Shown here one piece after another: positions 5,861 through 23,073 of a DNA stretch of 64,000 bases; the first letter of the stretch is position 1, and every line of letters begins with the position of its first letter. The notes beneath the pieces were generated by a model. That model was not told where the DNA came from and did not search any database. It saw nothing but the letters and a program-made list of their open reading frames with translations. Source of the DNA: Eledone cirrhosa (Eukaryota); contig OZ024757.1 in the NCBI GenBank assembly GCA_964016885.1, forward strand, positions 10,540,001 through 10,604,000, read 5' to 3'. A program made the translations under genes and the position numbers.

Positions 5861-6112
5861 CCTAAACGGACGGTAGTCCGTTTAGTAATATTGTTGTGGT
5901 CGTGTTTTCGTTGGCAATCGTCTGTTTACGACAGTACAGCGCGGCTCTACTTTATTTAACTGAGATAAAACTTATATGAGCATGAACAGTAGATCATTAC
6001 GCATCTTTTGGCTTAAAAATCTAGAAATTTGGTCCAGCGGGAAAAAGTTTATAATCAAAGTTTGCTGATAAATCTTGCGTTCAAGATTTATCAGCAAATT
6101 AAATTTCGTGTG

Positions 6113-6720
6113 TGTATACGTGTGTGTATTCATATACACACTAGTATTTCAGTATGCATATGTAGATGTACATTTTTAACTTAATTGTTTAAGTGTCAGT
6201 CATACAAAAGTGAGTTACAAACGAAACGAAATTTAATTTCGTTTCGTTATTTGTTTTTATCGTCTCCGCTGAACCGGTGCGTACTCACACTCTATGCAAA
6301 TTAGTCTGCCCACTACTAATTTTCATAGAAAAAGCATATAACGATATGTGCTTTTACAATTCTCCAGAAGGGCCGGTAGATAGGTAAATATTGCTGATGA
6401 GTTGTAACAACAACGAAACTAGTTCAATATTCCTTGTCTGGCTTTCTGGAGAATAGAGGGAAGGTGTTCCCCCGAAAACCAGTATGACTCTAAAAACCTG
6501 TTTGTCTGTGTGTTTACATACAGAATAGCTGGGTTGCTCACAGTAAAGCAACCAGTGAAAGACTTGTTACACCTACATATGTATACGTGTGTGTATTCAT
6601 ATACACACTAGTATTTCAGTATGCATATGTAGATGTACATTTTTAACTTAATTGTTTAAGCGTCAGTCATACAAAGGTGAGTTACAAACGAAGCGAAATT
6701 TAATTTCGTTTCGTTATTTG

Positions 6721-6727
<7 letters not shown>
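6113..6727 (+). mobile_element. Partial-tandem non-coding retroelement A (Penelope-like/retrozyme-like), period 467 bp
   Basis: 148-bp near-identical direct repeats 6113-6260 and 6580-6727; contains a hammerhead ribozyme motif; runs directly into (TA)n. Confidence 0.7.
6387..6431 (+). ncRNA. Minimal type I hammerhead ribozyme
   Basis: Stem I AATATTG/CAATATT, core CTGATGA (6394-6400), stem II GTTGT-aaca-ACAAC, GAAA, palindromic stem III ACTAGT, triplet GUU with predicted cleavage after 6424; stem I extends to ATTCTCCAGAA (6359-6369)/TTCTGGAGAAT (6444-6454). Confidence 0.85.
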
Positions 6728-6785
<58 letters not shown>

Positions 6786-6861
6786 CTATACATATATATA
6801 TATATACATTATGCATATATTCATATATACAATATATACATATATATATAGATTGCATGTG

Positions 6862-6920
<59 letters not shown>

Positions 6921-7077
6921 GAGTATATATATACGAGTATATATATATATATATATGTATTAGTATATATATATATATATATATATGTATACGTATGAGT
7001 ATATATATATATATGTATATATATGAGTATATATATGTGTATATATATGAGTATATATATATATGTATATATATGAG

Positions 7078-7112
<35 letters not shown>

Positions 7113-7175
7113 GTATATATATATGAGTATATATATATATATTTATATGTATATATATGAGTATATATATGCATA
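6728..7175. repeat. (TA)n microsatellite with ATGAGT interruptions
   Basis: Direct inspection. Confidence 0.95.
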
Positions 7176-7311
7176 TGAACAAAAGGTGACATCGTTGCCT
7201 GAACACTGTACAGCGTAATTCAGGCTGTTCGTTTGTTTACAAACGGACAAACCGATCATTATAATAAATGTTCGGTAAACTGATACGTACATATATATGT
7301 GTGTGCCTGTA

Positions 7312-7359
<48 letters not shown>

Positions 7360-7785
7360 CTACTGTACGTCTGTATACATATATGTATGTACGTATACAT
7401 ACATACTTACATTTAAGTAAGTGCCGTATTAAGAGTGAGAAATGAAATTTCGTTTCATTCTATTCCATTTATCGTTTTCGGTGCGCCTGGCCGACTGAAC
7501 TCACTCGATATGCAAATTAGGTTGCTCAGCGGTTAATTTTCATAAGGAAAGTATATACTTTCGGACGTTCAACCATCTGGCAGAAGGGTATACGGTGCTG
7601 ATGATAGCTAACATGCTTGAAACTAGTACATCGTTCCTGTGTCAGTGTTGAACAAAAAGGTGACATGGTTGCCTGAATACTGTACACCGTAATTCAGGCT
7701 GTTCGTTTGTTTACAAACGGACAAACCGAGCATTATAATAAATGTTCGGTAAACTGATACGTACATATATATATATGTGTGCCTG

Positions 7786-7883
<98 letters not shown>

Positions 7884-7988
7884 CATACTACTGTACATCT
7901 GTATACATATATGTATGTACGTATACATACATACTTACATTTAAGTAAGTGCCGTACTAAGAGAAATGAAATTTCGTTCCATTCTATT

Positions 7989-7992
<4 letters not shown>
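7176..7992 (+). mobile_element. Partial-tandem non-coding retroelement B (Penelope-like/retrozyme-like), period ~473 bp
   Basis: Direct repeats 7176-7468 and 7649-7992 (differing mainly in internal TA length); hammerhead between them; embedded in (TA)n. Confidence 0.7.
7592..7634 (+). ncRNA. Minimal type I hammerhead ribozyme
   Basis: Stem I ACGGTG/CATCGT, core CTGATGA (7598-7604), stem II (T)AGC-taacat-GCT(T), GAAA, stem III ACTAGT, triplet GUA with predicted cleavage after 7628; stem I extension CTGGCA/TGTCAG and GTTCAAC/GTTGAAC. Confidence 0.8.
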
Positions 7993-8033
<41 letters not shown>

Positions 8034-8054
8034 TATGTATATATATATATATGA

Positions 8055-8099
<45 letters not shown>

Positions 8100-8126
8100 T
8101 ATATATATATATGTGTATATATATGA

Positions 8127-8165
<39 letters not shown>

Positions 8166-8194
8166 TATATATATATATATATATATATATATGA

Positions 8195-8229
<35 letters not shown>

Positions 8230-8248
8230 TATATATATATATATATGA

Positions 8249-8285
<37 letters not shown>

Positions 8286-8314
8286 TATATATATATATAT
8301 ATATATATATATGA

Positions 8315-8393
<79 letters not shown>

Positions 8394-8414
8394 TATATAT
8401 ATATATATATATGA

Positions 8415-8509
<95 letters not shown>

Positions 8510-8577
8510 TATATATATATATGAGTATATATATATATGTATATATATGAGTATATATATATATGAGTATATATATG

Positions 8578-8608
<31 letters not shown>

Positions 8609-8739
8609 CTGAGTATATATATATATATGTATATATCTGAGTATATATATATATATGTATATATCTGAGTATATATATATATATGTATATATCTGAGTAT
8701 ATATATATATATGTATATATATGAGTATATATATATGAG

Positions 8740-8770
<31 letters not shown>

Positions 8771-8914
8771 GAGTATATATATATATATGTATATATATGA
8801 GTATATATATATATATGTATATATATGAGTATATATATATGTATATATATGAGTATATATATATATATATATATATATGAGTATATATATATATATATAT
8901 ATATGAGTATATAT
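7993..8914. repeat. Long (TA)n microsatellite punctuated by GAG (ATGAGT/CTGAGT)
   Basis: Direct inspection. Confidence 0.95.
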
Positions 8915-10757: not shown

Positions 10758-11171
10758 TCTCTCTCTCTCTCCCATCCTTACACTTCATCAAATCCACATC
10801 CAAAAGAAATTTGGCATTTGTTCAACTAAATAGATTTGCCTATCTTTCACACACGCACACATGCACATACAGACTCTCACACACATACACACACACATGT
10901 ACACTAACACACACACACACACACATACACACAGACACATAGACACTGGCGCACACACGCACACACACACGAACAAATATATATACATATGTGTGTCTGT
11001 GTGTGTGTATATATGTTTGTGTGTGTGAGTATATATATATATGTGTGTGTGTGGGTATGTGCGTGCGTCTATATGTATAAATATATATATATATATGTGT
11101 GTGTGTGAGTATATATATATGTGTGTGTGTGAGTATATATATATCTATGTGTATGTGTATGTGCGTGCGTC

Positions 11172-11215
<44 letters not shown>

Positions 11216-11265
11216 TGTGTGTGTGAGTATATATATATATGTGTGTGTTTGTAGGTGCGTGCGTC

Positions 11266-11296
<31 letters not shown>

Positions 11297-11372
11297 GCAT
11301 ATATATATATATATGTGTGTGTGTGTGAGTATATATATATATATGTGTGTTTGGGGTGCGTGCGTCTATATG

Positions 11373-11413
<41 letters not shown>
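10703..11413. repeat. Compound (TA)n/(CA)n/(TG)n microsatellite field with a recurring TGCGTGCGTCTATAT unit
   Basis: Direct inspection; TGCGTGCGTCTATAT recurs near 11060, 11162, 11256 and 11357. Confidence 0.9.
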
Positions 11414-11422
<9 letters not shown>

Positions 11423-11435
11423 ATAGATAGATAGA
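11414..11435. repeat. Target-site duplication copy 1 (GTGTGTGTGATAGATAGATAGA)
   Basis: Identical 22-mer at 11414-11435, 17254-17275 and 23074-23095, exactly at the LINE boundaries. Confidence 0.85.
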
Positions 11436-11439
11436 TTTC

Positions 11440-11445
11440 TTTATT
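11440..11445 (-). promoter_or_regulatory. Polyadenylation signal AATAAA at the LINE 3' terminus (same at 17280-17285)
   Basis: Minus strand reads GGTAAATAAAGAAA, then the target sequence. Confidence 0.7.
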
Positions 11446-11650
11446 TACCATAAAGGCATAGAAAGAAGGGACAAATACAAAGGGGGAGTTTACATATAAT
11501 CGAGTAAAAAGGGTGTAACATGAAAATAATCGAAAATAACCTCAAAAGGGAGGGGACGTGATGGGGGTTGCACACACCCCCGAAAAAGTGTGCAATCCTT
11601 TGCCCGGGGAGCACATGGAGAAGGTGCTCCCCTCTCCTTTACTTCTTTAC

Positions 11651-14600
11651 CTACAGGATGGTATACAGAGAAGGCCCATTTACACGAGCCATTCTCGCCA
11701 CTATCACCCACCTTTCATAAAACTGCCTGTGGCCAAGCACCTCTCTCTCCATTCTTATCCTTCTTCCGAAGTGATATCGGAAGAAGTAGACCAGACTATG
11801 GCCAGAGAGGAAGTTGCCTGACCTCAGACCTTTCAATCGTGTCCACCAAACAACCTCTTTCAACATGGCTATTACGCACAGAAAAACCGCCTTTGCTTCC
11901 TTTGTGAAGAGGGGAGGCGGTTTGATTGTCATCACGGACTCGGCGGTCAATTTAATCGGCGCCACCCGCGACAGCAGTCGTTCGGCGTAGCCCCACAGAT
12001 CAGCCACGCCCGGACATTGCACCAATGCGTGCGCAACGGTTTCTTCGTGACCCACGCATCTAGGGCAAATCTTTTTTGAGGGATCCCTGCCCGGGCGCCC
12101 GTGTCTGTAGAGCCTCTCTCAAACGGGTAGAGCCCCTCGGTAGCACTGCCAGGCCAGTGACTTCTGGAAGTTGTCCATTGGTCCTGGGCCGAAAGTCCTA
12201 CCGAACAGGCTGGCCAGTTCGTCTTCTTCCATGTCCAGCGACTCTCCAAGGGTGTCATCGCCCCTGCTAGCCACCAGCCCTCTATAGAATGCTGATGTGG
12301 ATTCTCCACCGATGGCCCGGCCCGCTTGCCAGAGAGCCCTGAGCGCCTGAGCACACTCAGTGTGCCAGTCTCCCAGTTTTCCGGATCTTTGCTTGACCCA
12401 GGACTGTAGCTCGGTGAGCGAGACGAGTCTCGGAAAGGCTCGTTTCACGAACGGAGCCGACACCGGTTGACCAGTGAGGAATACCTGTAGGTGCCGTAGC
12501 CTTAATGCGTGCCTACGCATCATCAACCACGGCATCCCCAGCCCTCCTTTCGAAGGTTGTTGGCAGCAGATGGATCTTCTCACCATAGGAGGACGCTTCT
12601 TCCAAAGAAATTGGAAGAGCATGCGTTCCATGGTGGTGAGTGTTTCCTTAGGGCAAGGCACGACAGTCAGGCGGTAGTAAGTGACGGACGCTATGTAAAT
12701 GTTCGCCACCTCCGCCCGGCCTTTTAGGGACAGCTTACACTTGGCCCATTTCTGGGTTAGTGCAAACACCTTGTTCGTAACCTCGTTCCAGTTCTTTTCC
12801 ACCTGGAGGTCCGGTCCAAACCAGACCCCAAGCAACTTTACCGGGCCCTCCGTCCAGTGTCCGACGACACCGTCAGGAGGCATCGGTCTGCCTCTCCACG
12901 TTCCGAGTTGCAGCCCGATGGATTTTTCCCGGTTCAGTTTCGCTCCTGACAACTTTTCGTACTCCTCCAGTAAGGTACCGATCGCCTCGATCTCCGAGTC
13001 GGTTGATACCATTACTGTTACGTCATCGGCGTAGGCCGACACCGCTTTGCTCAATCTTGGTTCCAGGGGGATACCCTGCAACAACTCCAACTTCCTCAGT
13101 AAAGGCTCGAGAGTCAATACGTACAGAAGGGAGGAGAGAGGGCACCCCTGTCGAATGGATCGTGTGATTTCGAACGGCTTCGAAAGGTAGCCGTTCACCT
13201 TGATCCTAGAACAGATGTGGTTGCTATGTAGGGCAGTGATCCAGCCTCTGAAAACAGGACCGAACCCAGCCGCCACTAGCACCGCATCCAGGTAACCATG
13301 GTCGACCCTATCGAAGGCCTTAGACTGATCTAAGTTGATCAGGGCCCCACCGAAGCCGGGTTTGTTGCCAACCCTCTCTATGATGTATCGCATGAGGTGG
13401 AGGTTATCGTGAATGGACCTGGATGGGATAGCACATGTCTGCGCATCTCTCACGAGGCCACCCACGACAAGCGCCAACCTCTTTGCTAACACCTTTGCCA
13501 AAATCCTTAACTCTGTGTTTAGCAGGGTTATGGGCCGAAAATTATTTATATTATCCCCCTTGTTCTCGTCCTTCCTCACCATCGTGACTACGCCCTTGGC
13601 TACAGAACAAGGAATTCTCCCGTTCTGCTGCCAATTGCAGTAGACCGCTACGAGGAGTTCGGAGAAGAAGACCGGCATTGCTAAATAAAGTTCGTAAGGT
13701 ATACCATCGAGACCTGGAGATTTGCGTCTGCTGCATTGGCTCAGCGCATCTCCGATCTCATCAGCCGAGATTGGTCCCTCGCAGGACTCTGCCTCTTCGT
13801 TCGAGAGACGCGGCAGGCCGTCGAGGTATGGACCGAAATCCACGCCCCCGCCCGGACCCTCGCCTCCCCCGAACAATCGGGCAAAGTGCCTTTGAAAGGC
13901 CTCGCACATCTGCTTAGGCTCCCGGATCACCCGTCCATCTTCGTCTTGCAACGACCGGATGGTGGATCGATTTCCACTCTTAGCTTCTGTCACGCGGGCC
14001 CATCCAACGGCTTTGGCCCCCTCATTACCTAGAGCACGTATTTTACTTCGAATGACGCAGCCTTCGTGCTTTGCATCGAAAAACTGGTTCAAGGCCGTCC
14101 TCGATGCCAGCACTCTGGCCACATCTTCGCTCTTGATTGCCTCTTCTAATTTACCTGTTAATTCTTTCTCGTTTCTATTCCTATCGGCAGCTAACATCTT
14201 GCTATAACTTATTGATTCTGTTCTAATCTCTCTTTTGAGAGATGCCCACCATCGGTTGTTGACGATTGCACCCGTCAACCTCTCCTTAACTAATCTGCTA
14301 ATCCGGTTTCTGTAAGTCTCTTTTGCCGGTAAAGACAAATTAAGTTTCCAGTAACCGGGACCCTGTCTATGTGTTTTCTCGAGATTGACCACGCAGGTCA
14401 CTAATTTGTGATCCGTGTAGCCAACCGTGCGCATTTCTGGACAGCTTAATATGTCCCTATCCTTACTTCTAACTAAGAATCTATCTAAGTACGATCTAGA
14501 TTGACCACTGTGGTTTCTCCAAGTCCAGGTAGGCACAGTTGGAAAATCTAATCGATATCTATCGACCAAGTTAAAACGGTCGAGTAACCCCTTGAGGCTG

Positions 14601-15088
14601 TTACACCCCCCTCTATTAGGACATGCTCCTGCAGAGTCCCAACGTGCATCCAGGATGTCATTCCAATCCCCCGCTAGAAGCAGGGAACGCGACGTTCCCA
14701 GAAAAGTCTCCAAACGCTGGAAGAAGTTGGGCCGTTCAGCTCCGAAAGGGGAGTAGACGGCGACCAGTCTCAAGGCCGCACTTTCACTACTGCCAACGTC
14801 TAGCACCAACAAACGACCCTCCGGGTCCGAGTGCACAACCTGTACGGCAAGACCCAGGTGTTTTTGCAGCAGTACGACAACCCCACCCCCACCTCCAGGT
14901 TGACAGAGAGATGCATGCACCTCAAAGTCATCGAAGGTGGGGGCCAGCTGCCGCACGACGCTGATTCGAGTCTCACAGATAACCATTACATTTATACTAC
15001 ATGACCTGAGGTCATTTAGAAGCTTTGCTTGCTTCCAAGTTGAGCCCAGGCCACGTGCATTCAAACATCCTACTCTTAACACATCCAT
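11651..15088 (-). pseudogene. Tx1-type ORF2 (APE-RT-CCHC), truncated at 989 aa by a premature stop
   Basis: Collinear with the 1145-aa ORF2 of copy 2; CGA>TGA at 12119-12121 (plus 12121 A vs 17961 G); the same frame continues to 11651. Confidence 0.92.
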
Positions 15089-15121
15089 GTGGGCGGCAGA
15101 GCCAAAGGAGAGTGTAGAGAC

Positions 15122-17022
15122 CTACCTTTCCGCTTCCCGGGGTTCGGGTTGCACGACTTCCATGGGGTCGGGGGTGTTGGGTGAAGGGGTGTCTTGTGGT
15201 GGTGTGGGGTCGTCAGTGTGTGGTGGGGTTGGGGTGTTTGGAGTTGTGTTGGGGAGGGGAAGGGGAGGGGGAAAGCTTTTTAGTAGGACGCGGTTTATGG
15301 GTTTGACAGAGGGTGGTCCTACGTCCTCCTTAAAATCCTTTTTTAGTTTTTGGTAGAGGTTCATTGGGATCTTTATTAGTTTTAAATGTGGGTAGTTTTC
15401 TGACGAAACAAAGTTTACACCTTTGGTTTGTACCGAAGGATTATTGTATATGAGCTCATTTAATTTATTATTGTTTCTGTTGATGTAAGTATAGTGTAAT
15501 GTCTTTTTTTCCGATGGTGTGAGTGTTTCGAAGAGGAGAGGGGCAGGTTTGGTTTTGTTTGTTGCTGGAGGGGTGTTTTCTGTTTTGTTGGATTGTGTTG
15601 AGATTTGGGTGGGGGTTGTTTGTCCTTGTGTGTTTTGCACATGTTTTCTTTTTTTCCTTTTAATCTGTCTGAAGGACTCCGTTTCTTCCTCCGAATTCGT
15701 TGGGTTATCTTCAGTGTTGGAGGGAAGAGGTATGTTTGCTGGTAATGTTTCCGTGTTGGTTTTCTTTGTGGGGGAGATGGATGTCACTATGTTAGACTGT
15801 GTTGTGTGTTGTGTCTGCGGTGGTTGTGTTGTTTTATTGAGTGAGAGGTTGGGTGGGCCTGTATTTTGTTTTGGGGTAATGTGTTGTGACTGTTTGTGTT
15901 GTGGTGGTGTTGTGGTTTTACTGAGGGACGGGTTGGGTGGGACTGAGTTTTGTTGTTTGTTTATCTGTTGTGGTGGTGGTGGTGGAGCTGGTGTTGGTAG
16001 CAGGGTTTTCTTTTTGTTGAGTTGGGGACAAGCGGCCTTCAGGTGCCCTCTGCCTGCACAGATATGGCAGGACGGCCTTCTCCCCTCCACGCTAATGTTT
16101 ATATACCCGTGGTCCTCTAATAGGATTCTGTCGTGTATTTGGGCGATGCGTTCAGGCTTCATTTGTACTACCAGCTCTATACCTGTTCCACTGAACGCAT
16201 TGCCTGTGGTTTTCCCAATGGAAATCACGTTGTCATTCCCTGGATCGATGAAGCCAGCTATGAGCCAGCAGTAGTCCACACCTGGCATCATTGCATCCAG
16301 CCATATGCGTTGAGTTCTTTTCCCCATATAAGATGGATAAAAGGTGAAATTTTTCGAACGTATCGGTGACAAAGCACATTTTTTTGCCGCTGATTCGTTC
16401 TTCATGATAATTGCTAGGCTTCCATACAGTCTGTCTTTTCTTATGAAAGTGGTTTCATTAAGTACTTCTGTGAGTACTGTTTTGATATCTGCTTGAGAAG
16501 GCTGTTCAGGTTTTTTTGTACTGTTGTTGATGGTCCGAAACTTGACCGTTCGGCTTTCAATGTCTTTCGTGAATTCTTGAGGCATTTTTACCGATAAAAT
16601 ACCATTCTCTCCTTCACGTATGTATTGTTTGGCGTCCGTGATCCTTCGTACCACATCTGAAATGTTTTCCGCTATATAAGTCAAAGATTTCTTGTTTTCT
16701 GTGCAAATGAAATCTTGTCGTCTGCTTTGTTTTCTGATATGGTGTTATTTTCAACTGTTATTTTTGTGTTTGTTGTGTCTTTGTTTGTGTTATTAGTATT
16801 GTCATGCAATTTTTCAAATTTTTTTTTTTCGTTGTTGGAATCCAAGTCCAGATTTGTGTTTTCGTCATTTAATTTTTTCTCCGCAGATTCGTCTGTTTTT
16901 ATTTTAATTTTTTCTTCCTTCTCTATGACGTTAGTTGGGAAGGAAGGGAGGACTAAAGCGTGCGAGCTTACAACTCTTACCGCTGTCCCCCCACCACTAT
17001 TTTCGTTCGCTGCGTTTAACAT
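15122..17022 (-). pseudogene. Tx1-type ORF1 (CCHC zinc knuckle), frameshifted
   Basis: ORFs 16681-17022 and 15122-16684 together equal copy-2 ORF1; one T is missing at ~16692 (CTTG vs CTTTG). Confidence 0.88.
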
Positions 17023-17253
17023 TTCTGTTAGACGATTGAAATTTTTTACACAAAATTTTTTAAAACAGGTTTTTCACCTCTAGGAGGGGTAAAGATGAGC
17101 TGACCCACCGCCTGACAGTTCAGACGGAGGGTCAAGCTACACAATTGTATCAAAATTAAGTTTGAACTCACAAAATTTCCTCAATAAATTTGAACAAAAC
17201 TTCTGTGCGAAGTGAATGACATCCACACTGTAGAACAGACTACAGCTAGTTTT

Positions 17254-17275
17254 GTGTGTGTGATAGATAGATAGA
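17254..17275. repeat. Target-site duplication copy 2 (between the two LINEs)
   Basis: GTGTGTGTGATAGATAGATAGA at the head-to-tail junction. Confidence 0.85.
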
Positions 17276-17490
17276 TTTCTTTATTTACCATAAAGGCATA
17301 AAAAGAAGGGACAAATACAAAGGGGGAGTTTACATATAATCGAGTAAAAAGGGTGTAACATGAAAATAATCGAAAATAACCTCAAAAGGGAGGGGACGTG
17401 ATGGGGGTTGCACACACCCCCGAAAAAGTGTGCAATCCTTTGCCCGGGGAGCACATGGAGAAGGTGCTCCCCTCTCCTTTACTTCTTTAC

Positions 17491-20400
17491 CTACAGGATG
17501 GTATACAGAGAAGGCCCATTTACACGAGCCATTCTCGCCACTATCACCCACCTTTCATAAAACTGCCTGTGGCCAAGCACCTCTCTCTCCATTCTTATCC
17601 TTCTTCCGAAGTGATATCGGAAGAAGTAGACCAGACTATGGCCAGAGAGGAAGTTGCCTGACCTCAGACCTTTCAATCGTGTCCACCAAACAACCTCTTT
17701 CAACATGGCTATTACGCACAGAAAAACCGCCTTTGCTTCCTTTGTGAAGAGGGGAGGCGGTTTGATTGTCATCACGGACTCGGCTGTCAATTTAATCGGC
17801 GCCACCCGCGACAGCAGTTGTTCGGCGTAGCCCCACAGATCAGCCACGCCCGGACATTGCACCAATGCGTGCGCCACGGTTTCTTCGTGACGCACGCATC
17901 TAGGGCAAATCTTTTTTGAGGGATCCCTGCCCGGGCGCCCGTGTCTGTAGAGCCTCTCTCGAACGGGTAGAGCCCCTCGGTAGCACTGCCAGGCCAGTGA
18001 CTTCTGGAAGTTGTCCATTGGTCCTGGGCCGAAAGTCCTACCGAACAGGCTGGCCAGTTCGTCTTCTTCCATGTCCAGCGACTCTCCAAGGGTGTCATCG
18101 CCCCTGCTAGCCACCAGCCCTCTATAGAATGATGAGGTGGATTCTCCACCGATGGCCCGGCCCGCTTGCCAGAGAGCCCTGAGCGCCTGAGCACACTCAG
18201 TGTGCCAGTCTCCCAGTTTTCCGGATCTTTGCTTGACCCAGGACTGTAGCTCGGTGAGTGAGACGAGTCTCGGAAAGGCTCGTTTCACGAACGGAGCCCA
18301 CACCGGTTGACCAGTGAGGAATACCTGTAGGTGCCGTAGCCTTAATGCGTGCCTACGCATCATCAACCACGGCATCCCCAGTCCTCCTTTCGAAGGTTGT
18401 TGGCAGCAGATGGATCTTCTCACCATAGGAGGACGCTTCTTCCAAAGAAATTGGAAGAGCATGCGTTCCATGGTGGTGAGTGTTTCCTTAGGGCAAGGCA
18501 CGACAGTCAGGCGGTAGTAAGTGACGGACGCTATGTAAATGTTCGCCACCTCCGCCCGGCCTTTTAGGGACAGCTTACACTTGGCCCATTTCTGGGTTAG
18601 TGCAAACACCTTGTTCGTAACCTCGTTCCAGTTCTTTTCCACCTGGAGGTCCGGTCCAAACCAGACCCCAAGCAACTTTACCGGGCCCTCCGTCCAGTGT
18701 CCGACGACACCATCGGGAGGCATCGGTCTGCCTCTCCACGTTCCGAGTTGCAGCCCGATGGATTTTTCCCGGTTCAGTTTCGCTCCTGACAACCTTTCGT
18801 ACTCCTCCAGTAAGGTACCGATCGCCTCGATCTCCGAGTCGGTTGATACCATTACTGTTACGTCATCGGCGTAGGCCGACACCGCTTTGCTCAATCCTGG
18901 TTCCAGGGGGATACCCTGCAACAACTCCAACTTCCTCAGTAAAGGCTCGAGAGTCAATACGTACAGAAGGGAGGAGAGAGGGCACCCCTGTCGAATGGAT
19001 CGTGTGATTTCGAACGGCTTCGAAAGGTAGCCGTTCACCTTGATCCTAGAACAGATGTGGTTGCTATGTAGGGCAGTGATCCAGCCTCTGAAAACAGGAC
19101 CGAACCCAGCCGCCGCTAGCACCGCATCCAGGTAACCATGGTCGACCCTATCGAAGGCCTTAGACTGATCCAAGTTGATCAGGGCCCCACCGAAGCCGGG
19201 TTTGTTGCCAACCCTCTCTATGATGTATCGCATGAGGTGGAGGTTATCGTGAATGGACCTGGATGGGATAGCACATGTCTGCGCATCTCCCACCAGGCCA
19301 CCCACGACAAGCGCCAACCTCTTTGCTAACACCTTGGCCAAAATCTTTAACTCTGTGTTTAGCAGGGTTATGGGCCGAAAATTATTTATACTATCCCCCT
19401 TTTTCTCGTCCTTCCTCACCAGCGTGACTACGCCCTTGGCTACAGAACAAGGAATTCTCCCGTTCTGCTGCCAATTGCAGTAGACCGCTTCGAGGAGTTC
19501 GGAGAAGAAGACCGGCATTGCTAAATAAAGTTCGTAAGGTATACCATCGAGACCTGGAGATTTGCGTCTGCTGCATTGGCTCAGCGCATCTCCGATCTCA
19601 TCAGCCGAGATTGGTCCCTCGCAGGACTCCGCCTCTTTGTTCGAGAGACGCGGCAGGCCGTCGAGGTATGGACCGAAATTCACGCCCCGGCCCGGACCCT
19701 CGCCTCCCCCGAACAATCGGGCAAAGTGCTTTTGAAAGGCCTCGCACATCTGCTTAGGCTCCCGGATCACTCGTCCATCTTCGTCTTGCAACGACCGGAT
19801 GGTAGATCGATTTCCACTTTTAGCTTCTGTCACGCGGGCCCATCCAACGGCTTTGGCCCCCTCATTACCTAGAGCACGTATTTTACTTCGAATGACGCAG
19901 CCTTCATGCTTTGCATCGAAAAACTGGTTCAAGGCCGTCCTCGATGCCAGCACTCTGGCCACATCTTCGCTCTTGATTGCCTCTTCTAATTTACCTGTTA
20001 ATTCTTTCTCGTTTCTATTCCTATTGGCAGCTAACATCTTGCTATAGCTTATTGATTCTGTTCTAATCTCTCTTTTGAGAGATGCCCACCATCGGTTGTT
20101 GACGATTGCACCCGTCAACCTCTCCTTAACTAATCTGCTAATCCGGTTTCTGTAAGTCTCTTTTGCCGGTAAAGACAAATTAAGTTTCCAGTAACCGGGA
20201 CCCTGTCTATGTGTTTTCTCGAGATTGACCACGCAGGTCACTAATTTGTGATCCGTGTAGCCAACCGTGCGCATTTCTGGACAGCTTAATATGTCCCTAT
20301 CCTTACTTCTAACTAAGAATCTATCTAAGTACGATCTAGATTGACCACTGTGGTTTCTCCAAGTCCAGGTAGGCACAGTTGGAAAATCTAGTCGATATCT

Positions 20401-20928
20401 ATCGACCAAGTTAAAACGGTCGAGTAACCCCTTGAGGCTGTTACACCCCCCTCTATTAGGACATGCTCCTGCATAGTCCCAACGTGCATCTAGGATGTCA
20501 TTCCAATCCCCCGCTAGAAGCAGGGAACGCGACGTTCCCAGAAAAGTCTCCAAACGCTGGAAGAAGTCGGGCCGTTCAGCTCCGAAAGGGGAGTAGACGG
20601 CGACCAGTCTCAAGGCCGCACTTTCACTACTGCCAACGTCTAGCACCAACAAACGACCCTCCGGGTCCGAGTGCACAACCTGTACGGCAAGACCCAGGTG
20701 TTTTTGCAGCAGCACGACAACCCCACCCCCACCTCCAGGTTGACAGAGAGATGCATGCACCTCAAAGTCATCGAAGGTGGGGGCCAGCTGCCGCATGACG
20801 CTGATTCGAGTCTCACAGATAACCATTACATTTATACTACATGACCTGAGGTCATTTAGAAGCTTTGCTTGCTTCCAAGTTGAGCCCAGGCCACGTGCAT
20901 TCAAACATCCTACTCTTAACACATCCAT
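17491..20928 (-). CDS. LINE ORF2p: apurinic-like endonuclease + reverse transcriptase + C-terminal CCHC
   Basis: APE motifs LNARG, ICET, VYSP, GDWN, SYLDRF, TDH; L1/Tx1 linker GPGYWKLN; RT motifs KSPGLDG, FRPITLLN, LDQSKAFDRV, RQGCPLS, AYADD; GGLG; CPRC..ETVAHALVQC. Confidence 0.96.
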   Translation of the reverse strand: MDVLRVGCLNARGLGSTWKQAKLLNDLRSCSINVMVICETRISVMRQLAPTFDDFEVHASLCQPGGGGGVVVLLQKHLGLAVQVVHSDPEGRLLVLDVGSSESAALRLVAVYSPFGAERPDFFQRLETFLGTSRSLLLAGDWNDILDARWDYAGACPNRGGCNSLKGLLDRFNLVDRYRLDFPTVPTWTWRNHSGQSRSYLDRFLVRSKDRDILSCPEMRTVGYTDHKLVTCVVNLEKTHRQGPGYWKLNLSLPAKETYRNRISRLVKERLTGAIVNNRWWASLKREIRTESISYSKMLAANRNRNEKELTGKLEEAIKSEDVARVLASRTALNQFFDAKHEGCVIRSKIRALGNEGAKAVGWARVTEAKSGNRSTIRSLQDEDGRVIREPKQMCEAFQKHFARLFGGGEGPGRGVNFGPYLDGLPRLSNKEAESCEGPISADEIGDALSQCSRRKSPGLDGIPYELYLAMPVFFSELLEAVYCNWQQNGRIPCSVAKGVVTLVRKDEKKGDSINNFRPITLLNTELKILAKVLAKRLALVVGGLVGDAQTCAIPSRSIHDNLHLMRYIIERVGNKPGFGGALINLDQSKAFDRVDHGYLDAVLAAAGFGPVFRGWITALHSNHICSRIKVNGYLSKPFEITRSIRQGCPLSSLLYVLTLEPLLRKLELLQGIPLEPGLSKAVSAYADDVTVMVSTDSEIEAIGTLLEEYERLSGAKLNREKSIGLQLGTWRGRPMPPDGVVGHWTEGPVKLLGVWFGPDLQVEKNWNEVTNKVFALTQKWAKCKLSLKGRAEVANIYIASVTYYRLTVVPCPKETLTTMERMLFQFLWKKRPPMVRRSICCQQPSKGGLGMPWLMMRRHALRLRHLQVFLTGQPVWAPFVKRAFPRLVSLTELQSWVKQRSGKLGDWHTECAQALRALWQAGRAIGGESTSSFYRGLVASRGDDTLGESLDMEEDELASLFGRTFGPGPMDNFQKSLAWQCYRGALPVRERLYRHGRPGRDPSKKICPRCVRHEETVAHALVQCPGVADLWGYAEQLLSRVAPIKLTAESVMTIKPPPLFTKEAKAVFLCVIAMLKEVVWWTRLKGLRSGNFLSGHSLVYFFRYHFGRRIRMEREVLGHRQFYERWVIVARMARVNGPSLYTIL

Positions 20929-20961
20929 GTGGGCGGCAGAGCCAAAGGAGAGTGTAGAGAC

Positions 20962-22842
20962 CTACCTTTCCGCTTCCCGGGGTTCGGGTTGCACGACTTC
21001 CATGGGGTCGGGGGTGTTGGGTGAAGGGGTGTCTTGTGGTGGTGTGGGGTCGTCGGTGTGTGGTGGGGTTGGGGTGTTTGGAGTTGTGTTGGGGAGGGGA
21101 AGGGGAGGGGGAAAGCTTTTTAGTAGGACGCGGTTTATGGGTTTGACAGAGGGTGGTCCTACGTCCTCCTTAAAATCCTTTTTTAGTTTTTGGTAGAGGT
21201 TCATTGGGATTTTTATTAGTTTTAAATGTGGGTGGTTTTCTGAAGAAACAAAGTTTACACCTTCGGTTTGTACCGAAGGATTATTGTATATGAGTTCATT
21301 TAATTTATTATTGTTTCTGTTGATGTAAGTATAGTGTAGTGTCTTTTTTTCCGATGGTGTGAGTGTTTCGAAGAGGGGAGGGGCAGGTTTGGTTTTGTTT
21401 GTTGCTGGAGGGGTGTTTTCTGTTTTGTTAGATTGTGTTGCGATTTGGGTGGGGGTTGTTTGTCCTTGTGTGTTTTGCACATGTTTTCTTTTTTTCCTTT
21501 TAATCTGTCTGAAGGACTCCGTTTCTTCCTCCGAATTCGTTGGGTTATCTTCAGTGTTGGAGGGAAGAGGTATGTTTGCTGGTAATGTTTCCGTGTTGGT
21601 TTTCTTTGTGGGGGAGATGGATGTCACTATGTTAGACTGTGTTGTGTGTTGTGTCTGCGGTGGTTGTGTTGTTTTATTGAGTGAGAGGTTGGGTGGGCCT
21701 GTATTTTGTTTTGGGGTAATGTGTTGTGACTGTTTGTGTTGTGGTGGTGTTGTGGTGTTACTGAGGGACGGGTTGGGTGGGACTGAGTTTTGTTGTTTGT
21801 TTATCTGTTGTGGTGGTGGTGGTGGAGCTGGTGTTGGTAGCAGGGTTTTCTTTTTGTTGAGTTGGGGACAAGCGGCCTTCAGGTGCCCTCTGCCTGCACA
21901 GATATGGCAGGACGGCCTTCTCCCCTCCACGCTAATGTTTATATACCCGTGGTCCTCTAATAGGATTCTGTCGGGTATTTGGGCGATGCGTTCAGGCTTC
22001 ATTTGTACTACCAGCTCTATACCTGTTCCACTGAACGCATTGCCTGTGGTTTTCCCAATGGAAATCACGTTGTCATTCACTGGATCGATGAAGCCAGCTA
22101 TGAGCCAGCAGTAGTCCACATCTGGCATCATTGCATCCAGCCATATGCGTTGAGTTTTTTTTCCCATATAAGATGGATAAAAGGTGAAATTTTTCGAACG
22201 AATCGGTGACAAAGCACATTTTTTTGCCGCCGATTCGTTCTTCATGATAATTGCTAGGCTTCCATACAGTCTGTCTTTTCTTATGAAAGTTGTTTCATTC
22301 AGTACTTCTGCGAGTACTGTTTTGATATCTGCTTGAGAAGGCTGTTCAGGTTTTTTTGTACTGTTGTTGATGGTCCGAAACTTGACCGTTCGGCTTTCAA
22401 TGTCTTTCGTGAATTCTTGAGGCATTTTTACCAATAAAATACCATTCTCACCTTCACTTATGTATTGTTTTGCGTCCGTGATCCTTCGTACCACATCTGA
22501 AATGTTTTCCGCTATATAAGTCAAAGATTTCTTTGTTTTCTGTGCAAAAGAAATCTTGTCGTCTGCTTTGTTTTCTGATATTATGTTATTTTCAACTGTT
22601 ATTTTTTTGTTTGTTGTGTCTTTGTTTGTGTTATTAGTATTGTCATGCAATTTTTCAAATTTTTTTTTTTCGTTGTTTTCGTCATTTAATTTTTTTCCCT
22701 CCGCAGATTCGTCCGTTTTTATTTTCATTTTTCCTTCCTTCTCTATGACGTTAGTTGGGAAGGAAGGGAGGACTAAAGCGTGCGAGCTTACAACTCTTAC
22801 CGCTGTCCCCCCACCACTATTTTCGTTCGCTGCGTTTAACAT
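20962..22842 (-). CDS. LINE ORF1p (nucleic-acid binding, single CCHC knuckle, long P/T/Q/N low-complexity C-half)
   Basis: ATG at 22842; CHICAGRGHLKAAC = CX2CX4HX4C; lies directly upstream of ORF2 as in Tx1 elements. Confidence 0.9.
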   Translation of the reverse strand: MLNAANENSGGGTAVRVVSSHALVLPSFPTNVIEKEGKMKIKTDESAEGKKLNDENNEKKKFEKLHDNTNNTNKDTTNKKITVENNIISENKADDKISFAQKTKKSLTYIAENISDVVRRITDAKQYISEGENGILLVKMPQEFTKDIESRTVKFRTINNSTKKPEQPSQADIKTVLAEVLNETTFIRKDRLYGSLAIIMKNESAAKKCALSPIRSKNFTFYPSYMGKKTQRIWLDAMMPDVDYCWLIAGFIDPVNDNVISIGKTTGNAFSGTGIELVVQMKPERIAQIPDRILLEDHGYINISVEGRRPSCHICAGRGHLKAACPQLNKKKTLLPTPAPPPPPQQINKQQNSVPPNPSLSNTTTPPQHKQSQHITPKQNTGPPNLSLNKTTQPPQTQHTTQSNIVTSISPTKKTNTETLPANIPLPSNTEDNPTNSEEETESFRQIKRKKRKHVQNTQGQTTPTQIATQSNKTENTPPATNKTKPAPPLFETLTPSEKKTLHYTYINRNNNKLNELIYNNPSVQTEGVNFVSSENHPHLKLIKIPMNLYQKLKKDFKEDVGPPSVKPINRVLLKSFPPPLPLPNTTPNTPTPPHTDDPTPPQDTPSPNTPDPMEVVQPEPREAER

Positions 22843-23073
22843 TTCTGTTAGACGATTGAAATTTTTTACACAAAATTTTTTAAAACAGGTTTTTCACCTC
22901 TAGGAGGGGTAAAGATGAGCTGACCCACCGCCTGACAGTTCAGACGGAGGGTCAAGCTACACAATTGTATCAAAATTAAGTTTGAACTCACAAAATTTCC
23001 TCAATAAATTTGAACAAAACTTCTGTGCGAAGTGAATGACATCCACACTGTAGAACAGACGACAGCTAGATTG

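Follow-up and report, generated by a model that had tools for sequence, protein, structure and literature searches.

Two related hammerhead-bearing retrozyme families at (TA)n sites in Eledone cirrhosa and their probable mobilisation by Penelope-type enzymes

Introduction

Within a 64,000-nucleotide stretch of contig OZ024757.1 from the 3.0-Gb genome of Eledone cirrhosa (the window), two short elements with a hammerhead motif, here termed A and B, each run into a (TA)n tract, which raises the question of what they are, what transcribes them and which enzyme places them in the genome. The available part of one study (PMC7229834) already describes non-LTR retrozymes of animals, with circular RNAs found in coral, mussel and axolotl, and names Penelope-like elements (PLEs) as candidate movers, and Li, Clavereau and Pollet (2026) argue that retrozymes arose from PLEs, on the grounds that the two co-occur and that vertebrate examples show pLTR homology, again as far as the accessible text extends (10.64898/2026.07.22.740005). 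In those portions of the retrozyme papers, the enzyme that moves animal retrozymes and the machinery that transcribes them are left open. The analysis indicates that A and B are, very probably, copies of two related high-copy non-LTR retrozymes moved by Penelope-type enzymes. Insertion into (TA)n is likely carried out by the RT and endonuclease of PLEs, the units are possibly transcribed from an internal U6-type box, and a circular RNA would serve as the template. The window copies themselves are two separate and ordinary single-arm insertions, both ending at the site termed long below.

Results and Discussion

Layout of the two elements in the window

The first-pass annotation had described both elements as a truncated copy followed by a full unit with shared motifs, no coding capacity and an equivalent end point before (TA)n, and this blueprint is borne out with small corrections (Table 1). 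The common end point is the long 3′ site, although in B its final 2-4 nt are indistinguishable from the (TA)n target, leaving the right border at about 7996, and B lies inside the TA tract 3′ of A. The shared motifs are colinear in A and B and comprise ATGCAAAT at 6294 and 7510, TAATTTTCATA at 6317 and 7534, the hammerhead pattern CTGATGA..GAAACTAG at 6394/6415 and 7598/7619, and a GAAAT..TTTCGTT hairpin at 6228, 6695, 7439 and 7963; the first three have no further plus-strand match in the 64 kb. Open reading frames of at least 40 amino acids are limited to short or TA-tract frames (15 listed). The proposed period of 467 bp for A is exact, with three differences in 148 nt between the partial and the full unit, and that of about 473 bp for B applies to the 5′ part of the element only. 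At the 3′ part of B the period is 524, owing to expansion of the TA tract inside the full unit and to the absence of 4 nt; B units typically measure 442 bp.

Other parts of the initial description change once additional copies are considered. The motif TTATCGT, taken as the unit start, is the junction between a long end and the next unit (TTAT/CGT), and TAAG(T/C)G, which is present as described, is a second, short 3′ end site (TTTA/AG) recognisable only from other copies. What had been proposed as one family is two related ones. The local alignment of A with B scores 47, whereas none of 500 shuffles exceeds 31, and an older B variant (L137) shares 73% identity with A along 112 nt that span the short end and the tail, from which the families are likely related by descent.

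Table 1. Features of elements A and B and their flanks; coordinates are window positions, and a slash within a motif marks the end site.
Feature	Position	Strand	Details
A 5′ junction fold-back	6061..6098	+	Perfect 17-bp inverted repeat, 6061-6077 / 6082-6098, in flanking DNA
Inverted piece of A tail hairpin at 5′ junction	6096..6109	-	14 nt; reverse complement equals window 6226-6239
Family A, 5′-truncated unit	6113..6260	+	Unit positions 320-467; 148 nt
Family A, full unit	6261..6727	+	467 bp, up to long 3′ site
A box TATGCAAATTAG	6293..6304	+	Exact match to the -78 box of a host U6 gene
A near-inverted box copy	6316..6327	+	
A TATA-like CATATAA	6335..6341	+	
A type I hammerhead	6387..6431	+	Core CTGATGA 6394-6400; Rfam (below gathering), folding
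A short 3′ end sites	6653..6658	+	Unit positions 393-398; used by other copies
A tail, short end to long end	6659..6727	+	Contains 13-bp hairpin 6687-6715
(TA)n-rich tract	6728..7175		Target at A 3′ end and site holding B
Family B, 5′-truncated unit	7176..7472	+	Typical-unit positions ~177-442
Family B, full unit	7473..7996	+	524 bp in the window, up to long 3′ site
B box TATGCAAATTAG	7509..7520	+	
B near-inverted box copy	7533..7544	+	
B TATA-like GTATATAC	7551..7558	+	
B type I hammerhead	7592..7634	+	Core 7598-7604, CTAG helix III; pattern, folding
B short end site and tail	7940..7996	+	TTTA/AG at 7943; hairpin 7963-7980
(TA)n tract	7997..8914		At 3′ end of B

The left flank of A is not (TA)n. 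In other copies of the flanking repeat, seen in a single contig from each of the runs X1 and X4, the sequence is different beyond 6085, so that 6086-6098 is likely templated fill-in, and the 5′ junction as a whole, with its fold-back and inverted hairpin piece, looks like the outcome of templated repair. The flank itself (about 6000-6085) belongs to another high-copy repeat that is broken off at 6085. Contigs of four sequencing runs, compared with 6000-6800, contain the A family.

A type I hammerhead in each unit

The repeat units of both families contain a type I hammerhead composed of CUGAUGA, a stem II of 4 bp that is capped by a loop of the UAACAA type, GAAAC, a helix III formed by the palindrome CUAG, and a GUH site. 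In A, stem II is GTTG/CAAC, cleavage is predicted after GUU at 6424, and the motif sits in a long stem at 6362-6451; in B, cleavage is predicted after GUA at 7628 and stem II has a U.U mismatch at its base. Stems I and II covary. Across 47 distinct contexts, the A subfamilies have either GTTG/CAAC or GATG/CATC as stem II, which amounts to a double change, and B has (T/C)AGC/GCT(T/A); the two families have different stem I sequences, with pairing kept in both (AATATTG/CAATATT vs ACGGTG/CATCGT). The cleavage triplet is GUU, GUC or GUA in the 45 contexts listed out of these 47, and conservation of the core is no evidence, as the search pattern had fixed it.

Comparison with Rfam assigns A to RF02275 (Hammerhead_HH9) at E 1e-7 and 38.6 bits, below the gathering score of 52, and at the gathering threshold the window has 0 matches. 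At E of up to 5 there are 109 matches, one of which is the A hammerhead and none a hammerhead in B, the remainder being mostly TA-tract miRNA noise. Folding z-scores are -5.9 for A and -5.0 for B, and the parts outside TA tracts beat all 200 shuffles. A short palindromic helix III implies activity as dimers according to the available text of PMC4209133, and since helix III is here a 2-bp palindrome, the hammerheads would probably cleave as dimers. Self-cleavage of A and B is a prediction from the motif; eight of nine Xenopus retrozyme dimers gave no cleavage in vitro in the accessible part of the preprint (10.64898/2026.07.22.740005), so a hammerhead motif need not be active.

Copy number and dispersal

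Families A and B are dispersed and young. All 40 scored matches to A (1,296 candidates) are 99-100% identical over unit positions 1-315, and scored matches to B (2,712 candidates) are 95-96% identical. The pair ATGCAAATTAG..TAATTTTCATA has 17,375 exact matches genome-wide against 0 for the reversed control, and the hammerhead pattern, with the two window variants excluded, has 5,965 additional matches against 11 for its control; the first 100 listed of those 5,965 are A and B subfamilies with one exception. As in retrozymes, the short non-coding units occur both dispersed and in tandem, from dimers to multimers, and one array on C1 has at least 29 units. The window copies carry one hammerhead each, and a further retrozyme characteristic appears in the families only (for example at L014, L242 and L136).

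Insertions end at two fixed 3′ sites

The ends of insertions were surveyed at 60 loci chosen by likeness and 61 chosen by position on C1. Across these loci the 3′ ends fall at two fixed sites, unit positions 393/398 or 465/467 in A and 385 or 442 in B, and nearly always run into (TA)n, and the 5′ ends are scattered; partial tandems with variable 5′ truncation and fixed 3′ ends are a Penelope trait. A motif-based end caller agrees with the two-site reading, and 77 of the 85 ends that it called in B continue into TA-alternating DNA; the corresponding value for A, 76/116, is not a target rate, as internal junctions of a divergent subfamily were flagged too. The stretch between the short and long sites is a tail of 57-74 nt that contains a hairpin.

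Many insertions consist of two arms placed head to head, and all 54 that were counted by hand, with both outer ends at a standard site, pair one long with one short end (12 A and 17 B from the likeness set, 13 A and 12 B from the C1 set), a result with a probability of 5.6e-17 if ends were independent at one half. Eleven insertions were left out of this count, five with an off-site arm (L006, L034, L058, L158, L238) and six that were unclear (L159, L237, L239, L246, L256, L272), and a further three outside the 54 (L053, L060, L247) are long plus short according to the motif caller. Neither long/long nor short/short pairs were seen in the surveyed loci. The 54 thus show an inverted 5′-truncated copy and a tail at one end only, which together with partial tandems are traits of PLEs in the available text of two studies (10.1101/2021.04.23.441226, PMC3846280). 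Both arms carry the same marker changes in all seven informative two-armed A insertions (six others have no markers, and L006 has no overlap), which indicates that the arms derive from one RNA or one source locus. Rare insertions, L158 and L261, end in (CAT)n or (CA)n and not in (TA)n.

As a candidate general cause of the 3′ ends, Pol III termination was rejected: the A long end comes after T5, the reference B unit has no T5 at this place, and autonomous PLEs have equal end pairs.

Autonomous Penelope-like elements follow the same end rule

A search of the genome for GIY-YIG domains gave 10,596 candidates, of which 150 were listed. The long frames inspected are Penelope-like, with RT, a C-x4-C-xx-C linker and GIY-YIG at the C terminus, and L126 holds an intact 938-aa frame with both RT and GIY-YIG. 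This linker marks the Neptune and Nematis clades in the available text of 10.1101/2021.04.23.441226. Five autonomous families of this linker type end in (TA)n and pair a long with a short end in inverted insertions; N1 and N5 have tails of 61 and about 60 nt, N2 and N4 have tails of about 33 and about 36 nt, and in N3 the tail lies behind an internal TA tract. The host genome therefore contains autonomous RT and GIY-YIG elements whose target and end pattern match those of A and B. The long/short end rule held in common with these elements is direct genomic evidence on the mover, and it names two exact priming sites. With the dispersed copies and the autonomous PLEs taken into account, the proposal of a non-autonomous retrozyme with a (TA)n preference and Penelope-style insertion has held up, and the autonomous Penelope elements expected to share its termini do share the end pattern, in five families, without homologous terminal sequence in 110 GIY-YIG loci.

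An internal box shared with host U6-type promoters

The sequence ATGCAAATTAG, which lies in each unit upstream of the hammerhead and is the first motif of the initial description, where its likeness to host genes went unnoticed, equals the box at -77 to -79 of host U6, U6atac and RNase MRP genes and is a putative host-specific upstream box of a Pol III type 3 (U6-type) promoter in both A and B. At 0-1 mismatch, the box is found in 12 of 20 U6 loci, which represent three promoter types, in one of 10 U6atac loci, the one that scores best, and in the only MRP locus, against a background at up to one mismatch of 9 in 814 kb on both strands (1.1e-5 per nt). The promoters of RNase P, five U1 and three U2 promoter types differ from it by at least four mismatches and have another motif in common, RTCAGT near -60. 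Of 498 retrozyme units, 455 have the exact 11-mer 100 nt (A) or 88 nt (B) upstream of the hammerhead, although overlapping loci from a single array weigh on these numbers. The host loci without the box are eight of the 20 U6 and nine of the 10 U6atac loci; in six copies of a U6 cluster another repeat replaces the upstream region, and these, with two more U6 and the nine U6atac loci, are tentatively read as interrupted or retrocopied.

Judged from sequence, the prospect that the box is a working promoter in A and B is about even, and the same weight falls on a reading in which it is a relic, an RNA-structure element or a protein-binding element and transcription comes from Pol II read-through. 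The distance from the box to TATA bears on this choice, being 47-49 nt in five host promoter types and 42-44 nt in A and B, about 5 nt too close, so that neither family has a TATA at the fixed host distance. The box also pairs with its near-inverted copy 12-13 nt downstream, and both box and TATA lie inside predicted RNA hairpins in A and B. The T5 runs of A, at unit positions 380 and 461, point the same way in that Pol III could stop within a unit, and newt satellite 2 offers a precedent for Pol II transcription (cited in the available parts of PMC2220036 and PMC6765202). Against a relic or a structural role, A and B have retained an identical box whereas the adjacent stems have diverged without compensatory change, and this box equals the host Pol III box and not that of U1/U2.

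Two other promoter arrangements were tried and rejected. A Pol II snRNA-type promoter as in newt does not fit, the host U1, U2 and RNase P promoters having the RTCAGT motif and lacking the box, and an antisense promoter from the inverted box has no TATA at 47-49 nt on that strand.

The host genes surveyed here have features of their own. The RNase P RNA gene (L277, G000:C24:12936134) has the U1/U2-type upstream motif and not the U6/MRP box, which suggests that it may be transcribed by Pol II in this species. About 30 variant U6 genes form a tandem cluster with a spacing of about 1.8 kb (L063-L080, G000:C19:31.78-31.84 Mb), and in six of the 16 copies inspected the promoter upstream of about -28 is replaced by the other repeat.

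A possible replication cycle and the form of its template

A cycle compatible with the ends and motifs can be outlined in four steps. A transcript would run across one or more unit boundaries in a tandem or partial tandem; hammerheads are predicted to cut this transcript, probably as dimers, and a unit would probably be ligated to a circle. As the observed ends suggest, a Penelope-type protein would then cut (TA)n and use each side of the break to prime cDNA, at two fixed AU-rich sites between which the tail hairpin lies. The outcome, as seen in the genome, would be head-to-head or single arms with variable 5′ ends and from one to more than 29 units, two-armed insertions being left with one long and one short 3′ end. 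In its complete form, with a retrozyme carrying a captured host U6-type promoter inside a self-cut RNA circle that a Penelope-type enzyme copies repeatedly from both sides of the (TA)n break, this scheme is tentative and, taken as a whole, doubtful.

The same retrozyme and the same Penelope mobilisation could operate with a linear multimer from tandem arrays as the template in place of a circle, which deserves serious weight while falling short of an even prospect. Arrays of at least 29 units could supply long transcripts, and autonomous PLEs give an equal two-ended pattern from presumably linear RNA. Units within one insertion also differ: those inside one arm are distinguished by one or two private changes, and in arrays L010-L012 and L242 two unit variants alternate with period two (467/480 bp in L011). 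Given these private changes and the three differences between the units of A, a single circular template is insufficient without later mutation. A dimer template, later mutation and unequal exchange all fit the private changes and the alternation, however, so that these leave the choice between circle and linear multimer undecided. Weighing against a linear multimer, the abundant RNA of coral, mussel and axolotl consists of unit-length circles in the available text of PMC7229834, and the arms cross the predicted cleavage site, with no 5′ end exactly there among the A copies listed. An excess of A>G changes on the ribozyme strand, looked for as a trace of RNA editing, was not significant in 27 A insertions (12 vs 8, p 0.38) or in 30 B insertions (14 vs 11, p 0.69).

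Alternative origins of the families

A more distant alternative to independent retrozymes moved by Penelope-type enzymes is that A and B are solo pLTRs or 5′-truncated stubs of an autonomous PLE, a very improbable origin that is largely refuted by the loci examined. Its appeal lies in the pLTRs of PLEs, which have hammerheads and form partial tandems (PMC4209133, available text), and in the Xenopus retrozymes, which resemble pLTRs in the accessible part of the preprint (10.64898/2026.07.22.740005). In the 60 top and 61 further loci, however, the DNA upstream of a full unit is the end of another unit, an inverted arm or a TA-rich flank, and contains no ORF. Among 110 GIY-YIG loci (of the 150 listed from 10,596 candidates), there is no terminal repeat homologous to A or B and no terminal sequence shared with a named autonomous partner, leaving derivation from a pLTR unsupported; the matches found at such loci are nested A/B copies, and no RT/GIY-YIG frame is joined to an A/B repeat in the loci examined. 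Moreover, A and B have a canonical 4-bp stem II and a bulged stem I, against reduced motifs in the PLE ends of this genome.

Finally, the idea that DNA recombination spread a satellite or local duplication, or that a LINE moved the units, is scarcely credible. The long/short end rule refutes dispersal by either route, and no listed end has poly(A). Thousands of dispersed near-identical copies with paired fixed 3′ ends, variable 5′ ends and inversions are unexpected under recombination, and they also contradict the single-copy duplications and random ends that had been named as refutations of the retrozyme proposal. Recombination may still explain the growth of long arrays, which probably occurred by unequal exchange.

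A weak likeness of the A tail to L301 and L292 was followed up and set aside as belonging to a separate two-armed TA-targeted element. This further (TA)n-targeted element (L292:1000-1500, L301, L325, L129, L242, L256) has two inverted arms, a hammerhead-like CTGAAGA..GAAA motif in which stem II is long, and a long and a short end of its own. Additional hammerhead-like repeat motifs with different stems lie near PLE loci (L128, L131, L135 and L138; L132 and L133; L106/L145; L139).

Relation to known systems

The following comparisons apply to the portions of the cited papers that were available. Families A and B resemble metazoan non-LTR retrozymes in their non-coding tandem units with one type I hammerhead each and a short palindromic helix III (PMC7229834, 10.64898/2026.07.22.740005), in their low GC, in their range from monomers to long arrays and in their co-occurrence with PLEs, and B shares with axolotl HHR_Amex2 the U.U at the base of helix II. 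Their units of 442-467 bp compare with 170-400 in Cervera and de la Pena 2020 (PMC7229834) and with families of up to 972 in 10.64898/2026.07.22.740005. The text of these two papers gives neither insertion ends nor a promoter and describes no targeting of (TA)n and no layout with two arms, and the link to PLEs rests on pLTR homology in the Xenopus preprint and, for A and B, on insertion ends without pLTR homology. Canonical endonuclease-bearing PLEs of the Neptune/Nematis type share with A and B the partial tandems, inverted 5′-truncated copy and one-end tail (10.1101/2021.04.23.441226, PMC3846280), as well as AT-rich or (TA)n targets and a hammerhead with palindromic helix III (PMC4209133). 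Unlike PLEs, A and B have no ORF and their hammerhead is canonical, not reduced, and their tails of 57-74 nt exceed the 30-40 bp described for PLEs; one autonomous family of this genome has a tail of 61 nt. Newt satellite 2 and Schistosoma SM-alpha are similar in being hammerhead tandem repeats with a promoter in the unit, where an upstream unit drives the next (PMC2220036, PMC6765202); the newt repeat has an snRNA-type promoter used by Pol II and the Schistosoma repeat a Pol III promoter. The putative promoter box of A and B, by comparison, is specific to host U6/U6atac/MRP genes, where it normally lies outside the transcript.

The retrozyme class and its Penelope link are thus published, and no description of these families, of an end rule for retrozymes or of a U6-type box in retrozymes was found in the literature searched. 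The initial suggestion that the elements are undescribed holds for that literature, which lay outside subscription journals, with Dfam and Repbase outside the comparison. The box would give a specific, falsifiable answer to what transcribes retrozymes. If a captured U6 promoter does reside in an RNA circle, the two priming sites and the tail hairpin would make up a minimal cis signal for Penelope trans-mobilisation, and an in vitro Penelope assay, so far missing, would have a ready substrate in the 467-nt unit.

Other features of the window

The right two thirds of the window (23162-64000) are occupied by a G-rich tandem array of 41 kb, in which a unit of 27 bp recurs in 1,471 copies and the GC skew is extreme. 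Between this array and the retrozyme copies, the stretch 11000-23000 contains an apparent duplication with 5,840-bp spacing, seen in 84-bp tandem blocks at 15798 and 21638 and in motif matches at 13404/19244, 13758/19598 and 12678/18518.
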